Source: Petrotogaceae bacterium
GTDB taxonomy: Bacteria; Thermotogota; Thermotogae; Petrotogales; Kosmotogaceae
DNA: 64,000 nucleotides
Reading direction: 5' to 3'
Assembly (NCBI GenBank): GCA_963664675.2
Contig: CAXXLB010000002.1
Location: 235,114-299,113, forward strand
Shown piece by piece: positions 5,229 to 11,106 of this stretch (within the stretch, counting starts at the first letter, position 1; each line of letters opens with the position of its first letter). A model generated the notes under the pieces. That model saw only the letters and a program-made list of their open reading frames with translations. It did not search any database and was not told the origin of the DNA. The translations under genes and the position numbers were made by a program.

Positions 5229-6152
5229 ATGGAATGTAGGGGTAACATTCGAAAAATATTTGAAGGACTTCCCTTTTCGGCTTTTGATGGAAAAAGTTAT
5301 TGCTATACGGATATAAGCTTGAATTTTGAAAATTATAAGCTTTTATTCGATATGAACATACCATTGAAACAATTTTCCTTTTTTAAAAAGTTACAGAATA
5401 GTTCTTTGAAATCATTTTTTAATGGGATTAAAAGAGTAACTGTTATGTCTTATAACTTTTATAAAGTGGGTTTGGTAAATGTTGTCATTGAAAACCAACA
5501 GAGTGACATTCAAATTTTTGATCTGAATGATTTTGTATTGATCTGCAAATTTTTCTTTTACATAATAATTGCTTTGGAATACGATTTAGATTTTAGTCAG
5601 GAATCGGAGATAATAACAGAGCTTGTAAATATTTGGGAATCAAGAAATTTTTTCGAATTTTCCCATAGTAGAAGAGTTGCATTTTATTCTAAAACTTTTG
5701 CTGAAAAACTAAAAATGTCAAAAAGAGAAGTAAATGAGATTTATTGGGCGGCATTGGCACACGATTTAGGTAAAATCTTAGTGCCGGTAAAAATCTTGAA
5801 TAAGCCCGGACCTCTTTCCGATTCTGAATACAGGATTATAAAAAAACACAGTGAGAATGCGGATGTAATATTTTTTTATTTTAATACTTTCTCTAAATTT
5901 ATGCCAATAATAAAGCACCATCATGAGAAGTGGGATGGAACAGGTTATCCCGATCATTTGCTTGAAAATAATATTCCATTTTATTCGAGAATAATAAGTC
6001 TGGCAGATTCATACGACGCTATGACAAACTTTAGAGTGTACAAATTTGCAAAAACCACGCTTGAAGCTCTTAAAGAAATACATGAGGGTAGTGGAACCCA
6101 TTTCGATCCGGATTTATCGAGAGAATTTCTAAAATATGAAAAATTTTTGTAG
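5229..6152 (+). CDS. HD-GYP domain protein (putative c-di-GMP phosphodiesterase) with an uncharacterised N-terminal domain
   Basis: Motifs HDLGKILVP and HHHEKWDGTGYPDH, plus ADSYDAMT. It is a paralog of 10186-11106 over its whole length. Confidence 0.85.
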   Translation: MECRGNIRKIFEGLPFSAFDGKSYCYTDISLNFENYKLLFDMNIPLKQFSFFKKLQNSSLKSFFNGIKRVTVMSYNFYKVGLVNVVIENQQSDIQIFDLNDFVLICKFFFYIIIALEYDLDFSQESEIITELVNIWESRNFFEFSHSRRVAFYSKTFAEKLKMSKREVNEIYWAALAHDLGKILVPVKILNKPGPLSDSEYRIIKKHSENADVIFFYFNTFSKFMPIIKHHHEKWDGTGYPDHLLENNIPFYSRIISLADSYDAMTNFRVYKFAKTTLEALKEIHEGSGTHFDPDLSREFLKYEKFL

Positions 6153-6161
6153 GTGTAAAAA

Positions 6162-6842
6162 ATGTGTAGAATAGTGGCTTTTAAAAGTGATATAAAAATG
6201 AATACAGAACCGTTTTTGAATTATTTAACTTTTATTTCAAAATATGGTTATAATTATCCTCACAGAGATGGATATGGATATGTTGTTTTTGATGAATTGA
6301 ATTCATGGACTTTCAGATCTATGAATTGTATTTATGAGGAAGAAAAAACAGACAGCAAGATGGCTAATGCAGGAATATTTCATTCAAGAAAGGCATCGAC
6401 TTCGAATGGTTATAAACCGAGATTCAATCATGTTCATCCCTTCACAGGAATTGCAAATGGTATAAATTATGCTTTTATCCACAATGGAACAATAAATGAT
6501 TTTTCTAACTGCCCAGGTGAAATCGATACTCAAAAATATTTCAGGATATTGTTATCGAATTTAATTAATCAGAGCCCCGAGGAAGCTTTGAGGAGTACTT
6601 CAGATTTTATTTCGGAAAGATATAAGTATACATCTTTAATTTCTGTTCTTACGGACTACAAAAACATATGGTGTATCAAAAAGGTATACGATGAACATGA
6701 TTATAAACACGATCTTTTTTTGATAGAATTCAACAATTTTAGGATGATAGCCAGTGAAAAAGTCGAAGAAAAATTTTGCTATTTTGATATTAACCCATTA
6801 GGGTGCAGAAGAATACCAAATGGTAAAGTTATAAAATTATGA
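6162..6842 (+). CDS. class II (Ntn-type) glutamine amidotransferase-like protein
   Basis: Starts MCRIVAF (Cys2 nucleophile position). Contains HSRKAS......HPF and FIHNGTI blocks typical of YafJ-like GATase-2 domains. It begins 9 nt after the HD-GYP gene. Confidence 0.65.
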   Translation: MCRIVAFKSDIKMNTEPFLNYLTFISKYGYNYPHRDGYGYVVFDELNSWTFRSMNCIYEEEKTDSKMANAGIFHSRKASTSNGYKPRFNHVHPFTGIANGINYAFIHNGTINDFSNCPGEIDTQKYFRILLSNLINQSPEEALRSTSDFISERYKYTSLISVLTDYKNIWCIKKVYDEHDYKHDLFLIEFNNFRMIASEKVEEKFCYFDINPLGCRRIPNGKVIKL

Positions 6843-8522
6843 ATTACAGTATACTATTTTGCTTTTTTCTACAAGAGTAATTTCTTCCAAAAAATTGAAA
6901 ACACGTTTTCTTTCGGTTTTGCTTTTAAAACAAAACAATGAAATAATACCAGGTTGAATTTTCAAGCCTAAGATTTTGAAGATTTCTTTGTAATCTTCAT
7001 TGTCAATTTTTATTCCCCATTTTCTGGAATATCTGACATAGTTTCTGATGAAATTATCTATGGATTCCCTGATATCTTCTTCGAGAAAAAAATATCTGTT
7101 AATAAACTTTTCTTTGTATTTCTTGTTTAAATCGGCGAAAAAATTGTCTATCAGGGAAAATCTGGCTTTTTCAAATGTGTTCAGGTTACTTATTAAATAA
7201 AGAAATTTGATCCATTCACTTCTATTTTCCAGATAATCAATATTTTTAGTTCCAGAGATGATAATTTTTACAAAGAAATCAATGGATCCTTTCCTACATA
7301 GTTTTTTTATGAAGTGTTTTCTTTTGTATAAACAACTGTAAGTTTTAAAGATTAGAAATAATCTGTCTGTTTTTGGTAATGAGTTCAGATATTTCAGGTT
7401 CATTTTTGCACTGAACAGCTCTCTGGACTTAAATGATTCTCGTGCTACCGCAAAGGGTAAATGAAGAATATCCTTTTCAATATTAATGTTACTCAATAAC
7501 CCATTTAAAGTAGCGGAATTAATTGTTTTCTTTTTTCCGTTTATTATTTCAGAGATAGTTTTTCTTTGAATACCCGTTTTTCTACTGAATTCAGATATAT
7601 TATCAATTTTGCTTAAAAGGAATTTCTGAAGTTTTTTAGTATTTTTATAAGTATTGCTCTCACTACATGTTATTTGATCTAATTCGATGGATTTATTTAT
7701 AACATTTTTTGTCATTTCTTTTTCCTGTTTGGATATTTCTTTAGAAAAGGAGATGATTAAACGGGATATCTTGATCAATTCATCGCAATTATTGATAAGA
7801 AGAACACTGAAGTATGTATGAATTATATAGAAATGTCTTTGGCTATCAAAAAATCTCCCAAATATTGTAACGGCTTTTTCAATTATTATGCGGGAAAGAA
7901 GAGGATGACTCTGATAAATATACCATGCAATTGCATTCAGGGATAAAAGCATACCCGAAACGTGGAAACATTTATTTGAAACTTTATAAGCGGTTATAAA
8001 ATCTTGGATTCCACTTCTGCTATTTCCTTTTTTCATTTTTTCTCTTCCAAGATTGATCTTTACAAAAGCCAGAGCGCTGTCCTTAACACTTTTTAATTTA
8101 AGCTTACCGAGACAATTTTCATAAGAATCGTTGAGAGAACAATATCCCAAAGTTGTTACGACAACCGAATCATATCTTATATTTGGAGGAACATTGTGTA
8201 GATTTTTTCTTAAATAGTTGTATAGCCTGTCTCCATTTTTAAAATCTTTCATTTTCAAATACATATTTAATTTTCTGGAATTAATTAAAAACTCTAATGA
8301 TTTCGATTTTTCGAAATGTTCTGCTGTCTCAATGTACTTGAAGCTTTTCTCATAATTACGCGTGTGTTCCACGTTTAAAGCCTTTATGAAAAATTTCCAT
8401 GATTTTTCCTCGTCCGAAGAACAATTCTTTAACTCAACTTCAAGTAAATATATTATAAACGGATTCGAAAAAGAACCGTTATCAAAAAGTAATTTTGCGA
8501 AATTGAAAAGTCTGTTATTCAA
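6837..8522 (-). CDS. putative transcriptional regulator with a helical-repeat N-half and a central XRE-type HTH
   Basis: 561-aa ORF. An HTH-like segment, ISEFSRKTGIQRKTISEIINGKKKTINSATLNGLL, lies near aa 308-345. The rest has no motif I recognise. It is divergent from the repeat-protein gene. Confidence 0.45.
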   Translation of the reverse strand: MNNRLFNFAKLLFDNGSFSNPFIIYLLEVELKNCSSDEEKSWKFFIKALNVEHTRNYEKSFKYIETAEHFEKSKSLEFLINSRKLNMYLKMKDFKNGDRLYNYLRKNLHNVPPNIRYDSVVVTTLGYCSLNDSYENCLGKLKLKSVKDSALAFVKINLGREKMKKGNSRSGIQDFITAYKVSNKCFHVSGMLLSLNAIAWYIYQSHPLLSRIIIEKAVTIFGRFFDSQRHFYIIHTYFSVLLINNCDELIKISRLIISFSKEISKQEKEMTKNVINKSIELDQITCSESNTYKNTKKLQKFLLSKIDNISEFSRKTGIQRKTISEIINGKKKTINSATLNGLLSNINIEKDILHLPFAVARESFKSRELFSAKMNLKYLNSLPKTDRLFLIFKTYSCLYKRKHFIKKLCRKGSIDFFVKIIISGTKNIDYLENRSEWIKFLYLISNLNTFEKARFSLIDNFFADLNKKYKEKFINRYFFLEEDIRESIDNFIRNYVRYSRKWGIKIDNEDYKEIFKILGLKIQPGIISLFCFKSKTERKRVFNFLEEITLVEKSKIVYCNS

Positions 8523-8701: not shown

Positions 8702-9871
8702 GTGAGAAGGTTTTTCTTAAAATCGACGAAAATATTTTTATTTTTGTTTGTATTTTTGTCTTTTCAATTTTTGTTTTTTTCTGATGCTGTTAGTTTAGAT
8801 TTGTTTTCGAGTAATTATGATTATCTTAATAGGGTTTATGATCCACCTGACATAGATAACCTTGAGTCCGGAAGAGGATTGCTTGCCTACGATCCACCTG
8901 ATATAGATAACCTTGAGTCCGGAAGAGGATTGCTTGCCTACGATCCACCTGATATAGATAACCTTGAGTCCGGAAGAGGATTGCTCGCCTACGATCCACC
9001 TGACATAGATAACCTTGAGTCCGGAAGAGGATTGCTCGCCTACGATCCGCCTGATATAGATAACCTTGAGTCCGGAAGAGGATTGCTTGCCTATGATCCT
9101 GATGATATAGACAATATCGGGGCGAAAATGTTCTCGGAAAGATTTGAGGGAGCACTTGCCTATGATCCTGATGATATAGACAATATCGGTGCGAAAATGT
9201 TCTCGGAAAGATTTGAAGGAGCGCTTGCCTATGATCCTGATGATATAGACAATATCGGAGCGAAAATGTTCTCGGAAAGATTTGAGGGAGCGCTTGCCTA
9301 TGATCCTGATGATATAGACAATATCGGGGCGAAAATGTTCTCGGAAAGATTTGAAGGAGCGCTTGCCTATGATCCTGATGATATAGATAATATCGGGGCG
9401 AAAATGTTCTCGGAAAGATTTGAGGGAGCGCTTGCCTATGATCCTGATGATATAGACAATATCGGGGCGAAAATGTTCTCGGAAAGATTTGAAGGAGCGC
9501 TTGCCTATGATCCTGATGATATAGACAATATCGGAGCGAAAATGTTCTCGGAAAGATTTGAGGGAGCGCTTGCCTATGATCCTGATGATATAGACAATAT
9601 CGGGGCGAAAATGTTCTCGGAAAGATTTGAAGGAGCGCTTGCCTATGATCCTGATGATATAGATAATATCGGGGCGAAAATGTTCTCGGAAAGATTTGAG
9701 GGAGCGCTTGCCTATGATCCTGATGATATAGACAATATCGGGGCGAAAATGTTCTCGGAAAGATTTGAAGGAGCACTTGCCTATGATCCTGATGATATAG
9801 ATAATCTTGAATCTGTGAGAGATCTTGCTTGTTTGAAATTTGAAGGGAGAGAATATTTATGGAGAATATAG
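8702..9871 (+). CDS. exported tandem-repeat protein (5 x 17 aa plus 10 x 23 aa)
   Basis: GGGAGGTG lies upstream of a GTG start. The N-terminus KIFLFLFVFLSFQFLFF is signal-peptide-like. About 90 percent of the mature protein is perfect repeats. All nucleotide differences between units are synonymous. Confidence 0.75.
   Translation: MRRFFLKSTKIFLFLFVFLSFQFLFFSDAVSLDLFSSNYDYLNRVYDPPDIDNLESGRGLLAYDPPDIDNLESGRGLLAYDPPDIDNLESGRGLLAYDPPDIDNLESGRGLLAYDPPDIDNLESGRGLLAYDPDDIDNIGAKMFSERFEGALAYDPDDIDNIGAKMFSERFEGALAYDPDDIDNIGAKMFSERFEGALAYDPDDIDNIGAKMFSERFEGALAYDPDDIDNIGAKMFSERFEGALAYDPDDIDNIGAKMFSERFEGALAYDPDDIDNIGAKMFSERFEGALAYDPDDIDNIGAKMFSERFEGALAYDPDDIDNIGAKMFSERFEGALAYDPDDIDNIGAKMFSERFEGALAYDPDDIDNLESVRDLACLKFEGREYLWRI
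8837..9091 (+). repeat. tandem repeat A: 5 x 51 bp encoding YDPPDIDNLESGRGLLA
   Basis: Five head-to-tail in-frame copies. They differ only at synonymous sites (tat/tac, gac/gat, cca/ccg, ctt/ctc). Confidence 0.95.
9092..9781 (+). repeat. tandem repeat B: 10 x 69 bp encoding YDPDDIDNIGAKMFSERFEGALA
   Basis: Ten in-frame copies with identical amino-acid sequence. gag and gaa alternate strictly. Units 3-6 are repeated in units 7-10 (a 276-bp higher-order repeat), apart from one synonymous gcg/gca difference in unit 10. Confidence 0.95.
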
Positions 9872-9963
9872 ATTTAAAAAATACGGAAGAATCGATTGTA
9901 AAAGAAACAAAGAAAATAATGGAAAATGTATACAGTTCAGAAGAGTTAATTTTAGAGTGGTAG
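9859..9963 (+). CDS. small acidic peptide, 34 aa (MENIDLKNTEESIVKETKKIMENVYSSEELILEW)
   Basis: Not on the ORF track. AAGGGAGAG lies 7 nt upstream of the ATG. It overlaps the repeat-gene 3' end by 13 nt. It has a paralog 17 nt downstream, and many differences between the two are synonymous. Confidence 0.55.
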   Translation: MENIDLKNTEESIVKETKKIMENVYSSEELILEW

Positions 9964-9979
9964 AAGGGGGAAATAATTA

Positions 9980-10084
9980 ATGGAAAATATAGATTTAAAA
10001 AATACTGAGGAACAGATCATCAATGAAACAAAAAATGTTATGGAAAATATTTATAATTCAGAAGAATTAATCATTGAATGGTGA
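9980..10084 (+). CDS. small acidic peptide, 34 aa (MENIDLKNTEEQIINETKNVMENIYNSEELIIEW)
   Basis: Not on the ORF track. GAAGGGGG lies upstream of the ATG. It has the same length as 9859-9963, the same N-terminal 11 aa and the same C-terminal EEL(I)(L/I)EW. Confidence 0.55.
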   Translation: MENIDLKNTEEQIINETKNVMENIYNSEELIIEW

Positions 10085-10185
10085 TTGTTAATTATTTAAG
10101 TTGATTCAGAAATCAAAAAATTATAAGAAATGTGAAAATAGAAAAAAACGGAATAGGGTGAAGTATTACTTAGAAGGAGTTTGAT

Positions 10186-11106
10186 ATGAATAAAGTGCTG
10201 AAAACGTATGAGATTTTTGAAAATTTACCATTTCAAAGTTTTTACAAAGATTCTGTATTATTAAATGACCAGACACAGATAGGGGAATTAGATCTTATTT
10301 TTAGAATTAATATACCTCTCAGGAAATTTGATTTTATAGATGATTTTTATACCTGTAATTTAAGTTGTTATGGTTTGAACAATTCGAGTCAGGTTGTAAT
10401 ACGTTTTGAATGTGATAATATGTCTGCAGTGGACATAAAAATTCTTAAACTGAAAAGAGATCTTGAATTGTATGATCTTAATGATTTCATCCTTCTCAGC
10501 AAATTCTTTTTCTATTCTGTATTGGTATCTAATCAACAATTTACATTCGAAGAAGAATGTCATTTGGTATCGGAACTGGTTAATATCTGGGAATCCAGAA
10601 ATGTTTTTGAATATGCACATAGCAGCAGAGTAGCCTTTTATTCAAAAAGATTTGCGGGAACAATAGGTATGTCTCCAAGTGATCAGAATGAAATATATTG
10701 GGCTGCCTTTGCTCATGATTTGGGGAAGATTTTTGTCCCCAAAAAAATTCTGAACAAATCGGGAGAATTATCTCAAGAAGAGAGAGAACAGTTAAAGAAT
10801 CATACTTATTTGATAGATTGTATATTTGACGCTTTTGATAATTTTAATGCTTTACTTCCTTCCATAAAGCATCACCACGAAAGGTGGGATGGATACGGAT
10901 ATCCTGATCACCTTTCAAGAGAAGAGATACCATTGTATTCAAGAATAATAAATATTGCTGATTCATATGATGCAATGATAAATTTTAGAGTTTATAAAAA
11001 CGCTTTATCTTCCTCTCTGGCCACAAAAGAAATAGAAAAAGGAGCTGGATATCAGTTTGATCCGGATCTTGCAAAAGAATTTATTAAATTTCAAAGAAGG
11101 TTATAA
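10186..11106 (+). CDS. HD-GYP domain protein, paralog of 5229-6152
   Basis: Motifs HDLGKIFVP, HHHERWDGYGYPDH and ADSYDAMI. It shares N-terminal blocks with the first copy (IFENLPF, DLNDFILLSKFFFY, ELVNIWESRNVFE). Confidence 0.85.
   Translation: MNKVLKTYEIFENLPFQSFYKDSVLLNDQTQIGELDLIFRINIPLRKFDFIDDFYTCNLSCYGLNNSSQVVIRFECDNMSAVDIKILKLKRDLELYDLNDFILLSKFFFYSVLVSNQQFTFEEECHLVSELVNIWESRNVFEYAHSSRVAFYSKRFAGTIGMSPSDQNEIYWAAFAHDLGKIFVPKKILNKSGELSQEEREQLKNHTYLIDCIFDAFDNFNALLPSIKHHHERWDGYGYPDHLSREEIPLYSRIINIADSYDAMINFRVYKNALSSSLATKEIEKGAGYQFDPDLAKEFIKFQRRL

Follow-up and report, generated by a model that had tools for sequence, protein, structure and literature searches.

The twin 34-aa ORFs that directly follow a repeat-precursor gene in the window (the whole stretch of 64,000 nucleotides from a Petrotogaceae bacterium that was analysed) are, by their substitution pattern, genuine coding genes under purifying selection, and they probably act within the cell as modulators of a cassette for peptide sensing and c-di-GMP. 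Judged from their predicted products (34-36 aa, charge -5.5 to -7.5, no export signal), these small acidic ORFs (SAO) form a small-protein family so far seen only in Kosmotogaceae, whose members mostly have amphipathic-helix periodicity and an aromatic last residue. The cassette would have four parts, i.e. a basic TPR-plus-HTH regulator (REG), a divergent gene for a Sec-exported acidic 'DPPD' precursor (PREC), one or two SAO genes and a downstream HD-GYP gene (Table 1).

Table 1. Features of the cassette, in coordinates of the window
Feature	Position	Strand	Remarks
HD1, 307-aa HD-GYP paralog	5229..6152	+	48% identical to HD2, N-domain shared; on the far side of REG
REG, divergent 561-aa regulator	6837..8522	-	N-terminal TPR-like superhelix, central XRE-type HTH (about residues 296-343), C-terminal helical domain
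PREC, secreted repeat precursor	8702..9871	+	signal peptide followed by acidic 'YDP(P/D)DIDN' units, 5 of 17 aa and 10 of 23 aa
Tandem duplication	9842..10071	+	121-nt period, 1.9 copies, 80% matches; takes in the ribosome-binding sites of the twin ORFs
Shine-Dalgarno of SAO1	9843..9851	+	AAGGGAGAG; 7 nt 5' of ATG1, within the final precursor-gene codons
SAO1, small acidic ORF, 34 aa	9859..9963	+	net charge -5.5, pI 4.3, C-terminal ...EELILEW
Shine-Dalgarno of SAO2	9963..9970	+	GAAGGGGG; 9 nt 5' of ATG2
SAO2, SAO1 paralog, small acidic ORF, 34 aa	9980..10084	+	net charge -7.5, pI 4.05, C-terminal ...EELIIEW
HD2, 306-aa HD-GYP phosphodiesterase	10186..11106	+	genus-specific N-domain of ~130 aa; starts 101 nt after SAO2

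A sequence-only reading of this DNA had described two 34-codon ORFs with strong Shine-Dalgarno sequences, and the ORFs, their ribosome-binding sites and the translations it quoted all match at the positions in Table 1. The same is true of the 13 nt that the start of SAO1 shares with the end of the precursor gene, an overlap by which PREC is translationally coupled to the twins in this genus. The description of the ORFs as unannotated holds for the 60-aa ORF track but is not strictly true otherwise, because gene callers list both twins (the exact 34-aa genes are called in NCBI, JGI, ENA and Logan assemblies); Kosmotoga olearia has a single-copy counterpart that is annotated too, as Kole_1702. 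SAO2 is 76% identical to SAO1, and the 121-nt tandem duplication created the twin genes along with their ribosome-binding sites. The 24 nt differences between the two copies are distributed 5:3:16 over codon positions 1:2:3, and the paralogs have a Nei-Gojobori pS of 0.77 versus a pN of 0.11 (Fisher p = 5.6e-7), a contrast seen in neither of the two alternative reading frames. These codon-biased substitutions confirm the earlier view that the twins are truly coding and evolve under purifying selection. At the strain level all seven variable sites in the twins lie at third positions, with one amino-acid change, and dN/dS relative to the congeneric genome G001 is 0.15-0.19, with a pN that resembles that of neighbouring genes. 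Over five other assemblies SAO2 shows 0-1 nt differences, though the next gene is just 95% identical there. Both peptides are free of Cys and Gly and hold no GG/GA cleavage motif; their GRAVY is -0.54 to -0.75, and with hydrophobic runs of 3 residues at the longest the absence of a signal peptide and of Cys, as originally noted, is borne out. The helical hydrophobic moment is larger than in shuffles for the peptides of the window genus and of K. olearia (p = 0.008-0.04); helical amphipathicity is not significant for the peptide of the Kosmotogaceae MAG G017.

The sequence-only reading had named missing homologues in relatives and substitutions without codon bias as findings that would speak against it; relatives do have homologous ORFs and the substitutions are codon-biased, so neither applies. 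Indeed, the twins are kept with identical gene order, beside the regulator and an HD-GYP gene, in two congeneric genomes (G001 and G002) and in five other public assemblies. In K. olearia (Kole_1702) and in G017 the same spot holds just one acidic ORF of 36 aa that ends in an aromatic residue; it comes after a short secreted 'DPPD'-unit propeptide gene, opposite a TPR-plus-HTH regulator and before an HD-GYP gene. When 151 Thermotogota genomes were searched with a profile, the small-ORF family turned up in exactly the 5 genomes with a close REG ortholog, and such close orthologs occur only in genomes that also have the small ORF. Sequence similarity across genera is marginal (shuffle p = 0.0075 for the window genus versus G017, about 0.04 for the twins versus Kole_1702, and not significant for K. 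olearia versus G017), and the orthology of SAO between genera is based largely on position and physicochemical type. Conservation covers the whole length of SAO, i.e. both termini and the middle, beyond the C-terminus alone, where an aromatic residue is the conserved feature (EELILEW, QVVF and GFQYW ends). Kole_1702 corresponds to UniProt C5CFP2, an uncharacterised hypothetical 36-aa protein of strain TBF 19.5.1. Like the twins, it follows a propeptide gene (the two-unit Kole_1701, at a distance of 13 nt), lies opposite a REG ortholog (Kole_1700, 39% identity), is acidic with an aromatic C-terminus and has the AGGGAGAG ribosome-binding site that also precedes SAO1; unlike the twins, it is a single copy, ends in VVF and has an SBP_bac_3 gene and a GAF-HD-GYP gene behind it. 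Sequence searches of Pfam, NCBIfam, PHROGs and PDB with the twin peptides gave zero matches, and an HMM search of 1.84 billion representatives returned one spurious match to a eukaryotic repeat and just two further 34-aa variants, both from this genus. Further cassettes did not emerge from a metagenome scan or from two word-index searches with REG as query, which returned nothing but records identical to G017 and K. olearia.

REG, whose HTH matches Pfam HTH_26, is very basic (pI 9.65, charge +39; orthologs pI 9.6-9.9, charge +25 to +45), and its AF2 model (pLDDT 86.7) predicts a TPR superhelix with the HTH. Foldseek matches comprise TPR peptide binders as well as NprR and Rap (E 0.01-0.14, all weaker than 1e-3, with a TM of about 0.3-0.5; NprR and Rap at a weak E of 0.06-0.14), and the solved structures nearest to the model are those of the RRNPP receptors NprR and Rap and of LGN, Hop and KLC, in which TPRs grip C-terminal peptides or peptides of 30-40 aa. 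Elsewhere in the order REG paralogs adjoin Sec propeptides ending in ...EIVSYIEESW or ...VVEEVE, or acidic Cys-rich peptides without a leader, behind which come radical-SAM/SPASM enzymes and ABC transporters; a PqqD-radical SAM-SPASM enzyme is present at one such locus. Homology of SAO to the pro-regions of the Petrotogaceae Sec propeptides (…EIVxxxEESW) was considered and rejected (hhalign probability 0.5%, shuffles not significant). The intergenic regions between REG and PREC, between SAO2 and HD2 and upstream of HD1 have no motif in common. Other neighbours of the cassette encode an Ntn-type amidotransferase-like protein and an alpha/beta hydrolase.

In K. olearia and G017 the position of PREC is taken by a homolog with two units. 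The units are acidic (net charge of PREC -57) and vary in number, the precursor of another strain having 8+4 of them (5+10 here) next to identical SAO proteins. The number of SAO types roughly tracks that of unit types, with two of each in G000, G002 and L113 and one of each in K. olearia and G017; in G001 the SAOs are near-identical and the precursor units belong to one length class, and masking of the central part of this precursor leaves the correlation incomplete. According to a published RNA-seq operon map of K. olearia (PMC5674127 Table S2), one Rockhopper unit (1832229-1832577), a prediction from non-strand-specific data, joins Kole_1701 and Kole_1702, while Kole_1703 and Kole_1704 are absent from the operon table and the HD-GYP gene lies outside the unit. 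Kole_1702 is followed by a T-tract. Propeptide and SAO would be made from one mRNA, by coupled translation in the window and from this single RNA-seq-derived unit in K. olearia.

As a tentative assignment, possible but short of probable, we propose that the SAOs are cytoplasmic acidic helical modulators, co-made with the propeptide in an AimX-like logic, with the basic REG as their likeliest partner. They would remain in the cytoplasm and work through protein binding, as the intracellular arm of the peptide-signalling cassette in feedback or output, and might act on REG as anti-activator, placeholder or co-ligand. The sequence-only reading had left a choice between cytoplasmic modulators and unconventional signal or precursor peptides; we tend towards the former, because there is no export signal, GG leader, Cys or maturase/exporter conserved over the three genera, and because the peptides are conserved over their whole length. 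The pairing of a basic REG with acidic SAO and PREC units fits REG as the partner, charge complementarity being a weak argument.

The closest parallel is the arbitrium system (AimR-AimP-AimX) of Bacillus phages, in which AimX proteins, antirepressors of 29-80 aa, act via protein binding and have their genes 3' of aimP in the same orientation (bioRxiv 10.1101/2025.11.23.689978). Like aimX, the SAO genes are short ORFs (34-36 aa) directly 3' of a secreted propeptide gene and in the same direction, the neighbour is a putative TPR-type cytoplasmic receptor with an HTH, and the sequences are so divergent that homologs are recognised by position; the order REG (divergent), PREC, SAO is seen in three genera and agrees with the placement of an AimX-type gene. 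The two differ in that there is no sequence similarity between them, in the host (a Thermotogota chromosome here, a Bacillus phage there) and in expression, since aimX has its own AimR-dependent promoter, which the mature peptide shuts off, whereas the SAO ORFs are coupled to the propeptide gene. AimX binds the repressor AimC and prevents it from oligomerising; an AimC/AimL-like repressor pair, a second HTH repressor or a cro-like pair is not found in the SAO cassette. Quorum-sensing anti-activators and anti-repressors such as TraM, which acts on TraR, and SinI, which acts on the XRE-type SinR, are small helical proteins encoded beside their transcription factor, which they bind stoichiometrically and thereby set the response threshold. 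TraM is about three times larger than SAO, and SAO differs from SinI in lacking a match to Pfam SinI or any other domain as well as local similarity to REG helices. SinI-like mimicry of a segment of REG, HD-GYP or PREC was rejected, as local alignments were no better than shuffles (SAO-REG p 0.25-0.85).

The propeptides of RRNPP(A) systems (Phr, PapR, NprX, SHP, ComS, AimP) resemble SAO as small ORFs adjoining a TPR-type receptor, a putative one in the case of SAO, and their active peptide is often at the C-terminal end. However, the twins have neither a Sec signal nor an SHP/ComS-type hydrophobic body, the cassette already contains a separate Sec-exported propeptide, and the HTH is N-terminal in RRNPP(A) receptors but predicted to be central in REG. 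RRNPP systems are described from Firmicutes and from mobile elements of these (PMC10075063). RiPP precursors with acidic leaders are likewise small and acidic and have no Sec leader, and some of them adjoin REG paralogs with radical-SAM maturases; the Cys-rich core of these precursors is absent from SAO. No maturase, RRE-containing enzyme or exporter is found in the cassettes of the window, K. olearia and G017, and no C39-peptidase ABC exporter of the double-glycine-leader type near the twins.

The main rival to REG binding, and the leading interpretation of the sequence-only reading, is that SAO binds the N-terminal sensor domains of the downstream HD-GYPs and toggles c-di-GMP hydrolysis, which would couple propeptide expression to c-di-GMP. 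An HD-GYP gene in the same orientation does lie downstream of the small ORF in all three genera, no terminator separates the two in the window (SAO2 and HD2) or in G017, and two divergent SAOs accompany two HD-GYP paralogs with one genus-specific N-domain in G000 and G002, compared with one and one in the K. olearia and G017 cassettes. This two-for-two match is one of G000 and G002, since in G001 only HD2 is visible and HD1 would lie past the contig end; no small ORF is present 5' of HD1. While SAO and REG are conserved, no relation is detectable among the HD-GYP N-domains of different genera (a GAF domain in K. olearia, of no assignable type in the window and in G017); relatives of the HD2 N-domain outside the genus were not found, and its AF2 model has a pLDDT below 50. 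Moreover, in K. olearia the SBP_bac_3 gene intervenes between small ORF and HD-GYP gene and the RNA-seq transcription unit stops after the small ORF, Petrotogaceae cassettes with a REG paralog, a propeptide and an HD-GYP work without any SAO, and the HD-GYP proteins are near neutral or acidic and therefore without charge complementarity to SAO. Thus, of the proposed tie to the neighbouring genes, synteny with the regulator and the HD-GYP gene stands but the link to the HD-GYP N-domains is weaker than assumed there, and we consider HD-GYP binding rather unlikely. An unlikely elaboration of REG binding is that SAO serves as an internal ligand that fills the basic TPR groove in the producer and gives way to 'DPPD' peptides once these are imported; produced in stoichiometric amounts with the exported propeptide, SAO would be a placeholder or antagonist in a self/non-self or threshold device. 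This would explain why acidic ligands meet a basic receptor, why SAO types track unit types and why SAO occurs only with this receptor orthogroup.

That the SAOs are instead leaderless precursors of exported peptides, with a ComS/SHP-like C-terminal pheromone (EELILEW, QVVF, GFQYW) or a RiPP/bacteriocin-like output, would agree with their conserved aromatic C-terminal residue and with the peptides of similar composition next to REG paralogs (the Sec propeptides and the leaderless Cys-rich peptides with radical-SAM/SPASM enzymes and ABC transporters described above). We regard it as quite improbable: the likeness to the Petrotogaceae propeptides is compositional only, SAO lacks a signal peptide, an SHP-like hydrophobic body, a GG leader and residues such as Cys that would be obvious sites of modification; around the small ORF the three genera share no maturase, peptidase-exporter or ABC transporter; and, unlike in diverging pherotypes, conservation extends over both ends and the middle, with nearly identical C-termini in the two paralogs. 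Assistance to the precursor, in which SAO would hold the acidic repeat propeptide export-competent or guide its processing, would account for the coupled translation; the SAO genes overlap the precursor gene or come shortly after it, within its transcription unit, and the number of SAO types roughly follows that of unit types, a correlation left incomplete by the masked G001 precursor. Yet both partners are strongly acidic, Sec substrates of such size need no dedicated chaperone, and unit numbers vary freely by strain with unchanged SAO proteins, which leaves this role very doubtful. Finally, the ORFs might be mere coupling devices or leader uORFs for HD-GYP expression, or evolutionarily transient, their product being functionless. 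Their location between a highly expressed small gene and the gene of a regulatory enzyme, their strong ribosome-binding sites and short spacers would suit such a role, as would the synonymous conservation of SAO2 (0-1 differences versus about 5 expected), which hints at RNA-level constraint. But the amino-acid sequence is clearly under purifying selection, the peptide type is conserved over three genera, and the region after SAO2 contains no riboswitch, attenuator-like structure, terminator or Rfam match (fold of 10075-10200, z = 0.36), which departs from leader-peptide and attenuator uORFs and makes a functionless product extremely improbable.

Proteins of <50 aa are routinely missed or left 'hypothetical', and the SAO family has clear selection signatures. 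Taken without the cassette, the finding would be a modest one, namely a lineage-restricted, uncharacterised small-protein family; what adds to it is the fixed place of the family in a candidate peptide-signalling cassette. We found no described receptor/propeptide systems like this cassette in Thermotogota in the literature. As modulators of the TPR/HTH receptor or of the HD-GYPs, the twins would be a third component of Thermotogota peptide communication, linking peptide signalling to c-di-GMP; should SAO be the internal ligand of REG, this would amount to peptide quorum sensing outside Firmicutes, in Thermotogota, with c-di-GMP turnover as output. With Kosmotoga olearia (Kole_1700-1704) there is a cultivable carrier of the cassette.

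The twin small acidic ORFs of the window, SAO1 and SAO2 (members of the SAO family), are with high confidence genuine genes. Their position, their length of 34 codons and both translations agreed on re-check with the sequence-only reading, as did the 13 nt that the start of SAO1 shares with the end of the 389-aa repeat-protein gene PREC, a secreted repeat precursor. The pair constitutes a tandem unit of 121 nt (1.9 copies, 80% matches; Tandem Repeats Finder), so that the ribosome-binding sites were duplicated along with the ORFs. The ORFs had been called unannotated, which applies to the 60-aa ORF track only: 34-aa gene calls exist in public assemblies and in a large protein collection.

Coordinates of the twin ORFs, their ribosome-binding sites and neighbouring genes in the window
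Feature	Position	Strand	Remark
SAO1	9859-9963	+	34 codons
SAO2	9980-10084	+	34 codons
SAO1 ribosome-binding site AAGGGAGAG	9843-9851	+	7 nt ahead of first ATG
SAO2 ribosome-binding site GAAGGGGG	9963-9970	+	9 nt ahead of second ATG
PREC	8702-9871	+	secreted repeat precursor
REG	6837-8522	-	561-aa TPR-like and HTH regulator
HD2	10186-11106	+	HD-GYP gene downstream of SAO2
HD1	5229-6152	+	paralog of HD2
Ntn-like gene	6162-6842		class-II amidotransferase-like, adjoins REG

Between SAO1 and SAO2, 16 of the 24 nucleotide differences fall on third codon positions, and Nei-Gojobori counts give a pS of 0.77 and a pN of 0.11 (Fisher p = 5.6e-7), a contrast that is absent in both other reading frames. 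Compared with the congeneric genome G001, dN/dS is 0.15-0.19 (pN 0.08 for SAO, 0.07 for the neighbouring HD-GYP gene and 0.14 for REG). The third-position bias and this low dN/dS bear out the earlier claim of coding sequence under purifying selection. Both genes are also present in five more public assemblies, from identical or closely related strains, where seven of seven variable sites are third positions and one alters an amino acid. SAO2 shows 0-1 nt differences in five other assemblies (L113-L117), where about 5 would be expected and the adjacent HD-GYP gene is 95% identical; the synonymous divergence of SAO1 to G001 (pS 0.34) is half that of its neighbours (~0.7). These low values could stem from a further constraint at the RNA level or from gene conversion in the recent past. 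The G001 twins (L005:285-507), both SAO1-like, differ from each other by 5 nt (1 aa), a pattern that points to gene conversion or re-duplication inside the twin array.

Following the proposal to look for homologues and synteny in relatives, we searched 61 relatives and then 151 Thermotogota genomes and found the family in five genomes only, with one gene order across three genera. The carriers are three genomes of the window's genus (all with twins), Kosmotoga olearia TBF 19.5.1, whose exact peptide is Kole_1702 (UniProt C5CFP2), and the Kosmotogaceae MAG G017. Close REG orthologs (E below 1e-100) occur in exactly the same five genomes; remoter REG paralogs are common across the order. From 1.84 billion representatives an HMM search recovered just two additional SAO variants, both of the window's genus, and metagenome and word-index searches yielded no further lineages.

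In the common cassette the basic regulator REG lies on one strand; divergent from it is PREC, a Sec-exported propeptide gene with acidic 'DPPD' units, directly followed by one or two SAO genes and, further downstream, by an HD-GYP gene. PREC holds 15 full units (5 + 10) in the window and two each in K. olearia and G017. The SAO counterparts in these two genomes have 36 aa each and a net charge of -7.5 (window twins: -5.5 and -7.5), and like the twins they are without a hydrophobic stretch. The C-terminus is aromatic in all three genera (W, W or F), and a AGGGAGAG ribosome-binding site is retained ahead of the K. olearia counterpart. Cross-genus sequence similarity is only marginal in shuffle tests (window genus to G017 p = 0.0075, end-to-end; window genus to Kosmotoga ~0.04; Kosmotoga to G017 not significant), so that the orthology, which we consider likely, is drawn from position and physicochemical type together with this weak similarity. 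The REG ortholog of the congener G002 (L104:406-2061), 97% identical, stops ~10 codons earlier, at 551 aa.

The SAO peptides have no matches in Pfam, NCBIfam, PHROG or a PDB sequence search. As claimed previously they contain neither a signal peptide nor Cys, and a GG motif is absent too. The alpha-helical hydrophobic moment exceeds that of shuffled controls for the peptides of the window's genus and K. olearia (p = 0.008-0.04), but not for the G017 peptide. Because conservation extends over N-terminus, middle and C-terminus, SAO looks like a small protein used whole rather than a leader with a variable pheromone.

For K. olearia, Illumina RNA-seq from a temperature transcriptome study yielded a Rockhopper unit of two genes, Kole_1701 and Kole_1702 (1832229-1832577, +; PMC5674127, Table S2). 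Its ends exactly match the propeptide start and the small-ORF stop in the K. olearia genome (G005). The next unit in that table begins at Kole_1705; Kole_1703 (SBP gene) and Kole_1704 (GAF-HD-GYP gene) are in none (PMC5674127). Downstream of Kole_1702 lies a T7 tract with a weak hairpin ahead of it. In the gap between SAO and the HD-GYP gene in the window and G017 we detected no terminator, stable RNA structure or Rfam match, and read-through from SAO2 into HD2 is thus possible in the window.

From gene status, conservation, gene order and the co-transcription in a relative we infer, as the best-supported reading, a cytoplasmic role for the twins as small proteins: SAO would be made together with the propeptide, stay in the cytoplasm and act via binding a cassette protein. 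REG is a tentative candidate for this partner, possible though short of probable. It is favoured because SAO co-occurs exactly with this REG orthogroup, because SAO in K. olearia is coupled to the propeptide gene and not to the HD-GYP gene, and because of complementary charges and the TPR fold of REG. REG, with a pI of 9.6-9.9 and a charge of +25 to +45, is strongly basic. The acidic components of the cassette are SAO and the PREC units; its HD-GYPs are close to neutral. The AF2 model of REG (pLDDT 86.7) is all-helical: its N-terminal part forms a TPR-like superhelix, an HTH occupies the centre, and the C-terminal domain is likewise helical. The nearest solved structures fall into two sets, namely TPR domains whose clamped ligands are C-terminal or long acidic peptides (LGN complexes, Hop, kinesin light chain) and two RRNPP receptors, NprR and Rap; as every match is weak (E 0.01-0.14), the modelled likeness is one of fold class and not of membership.

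That SAO instead binds the HD-GYP proteins seems unlikely. Two divergent SAOs next to two HD-GYP paralogs in the window genome and G002 would fit such a pairing. In G001, whose SAO copies are near-identical, the contig ends before the expected second HD-GYP site, so that the count there covers one. The HD-GYP N-domains show no detectable cross-genus relation, with GAF in K. olearia and no assignable domain in the window; for the ~130-aa N-domain common to both window paralogs (10186-10580, 5229-5630; AF2 pLDDT below 50) no relatives were detected outside the genus. An exported or RiPP-like role would match the output position behind the propeptide gene, yet SAO is without RiPP hallmarks, and we regard it as improbable. 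A role in handling PREC, which we deem very improbable, would agree with the number of SAO types roughly following that of unit types; however, unit numbers differ by strain while the SAO proteins stay unchanged. Thus the precursor of a ~92% DNA-identical strain (L113:2985-3893, ENA ERZ21878204 contig) is 302 aa long and consists of eight 17-aa and four 23-aa units, where the window has 5 + 10, and both its SAO proteins have the same sequences as those of the window. That SAO is a mere coupling uORF is hardly to be expected.

The proposed protein-binding SAO would share its logic with the AimX antirepressors, which are 29-80 aa long, lie just downstream of aimP, are highly divergent and bind proteins (bioRxiv 10.1101/2025.11.23.689978): SAO is likewise small, divergent and located behind a propeptide gene. 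The cassette resembles receptor/propeptide quorum sensing, from which it differs in phylum, receptor architecture and third component, and we found no literature report on Kole_1700-1704 or on RRNPP-type systems in Thermotogota. SAO is an uncharacterised, lineage-restricted small-protein family, a solid gene discovery testable in a cultivable relative; its proposed function would be that of a small modulator attached to a peptide-signalling module.

Petrotogaceae REG paralogs are divergent from 41-53-aa Sec propeptides. In one genus (L060, L061, L062 and L064; e.g. L060:4935-5096) the propeptide has 52-53 aa; behind its gene come a strong terminator and the gene of a membrane-anchored HD-GYP protein of ~450 aa, the N-terminal part of which is membrane or periplasmic. 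The theme of regulator, propeptide and HD-GYP thus recurs there, but a small acidic ORF is absent. In other Petrotogaceae (L073:135-4650, L075, L071, L070) 47-aa propeptides ending in ...VVEEVE or ...YIEESW precede Cys-rich RiPP-like precursors (46-67 aa), radical-SAM enzymes (~430-470 aa) and ABC-transporter-like proteins (~555 aa); the loci resemble gene clusters for RiPPs or bacteriocin-like products that are controlled by peptide sensing. We rejected homology of SAO to the acidic ...EESW tails, as the likeness is compositional only. In the Kosmotogaceae genome G020 (L063:2248-3950) the neighbours of a REG paralog are a PqqD-radical SAM-SPASM enzyme and an acidic peptide of 46 aa that has no leader, contains Cys and ends in W. 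Given these contents, an association with peptides is general in the REG family, and what follows the propeptide gene has the look of an output, a position that SAO occupies in its own cassette. In G040 (L069:6768-7048) a REG paralog neighbours the gene of a 41-aa Sec propeptide, and 27 nt behind that gene lies a 42-aa strongly basic ORF, possibly a second, unrelated small gene at the equivalent position. K. olearia has a homolog (E = 2e-40) of the Ntn-like gene adjoining REG close to its REG paralogs (L056:10250-10990), but none in its orthologous cassette; the Ntn-like gene may be a recurrent companion of the REG family.
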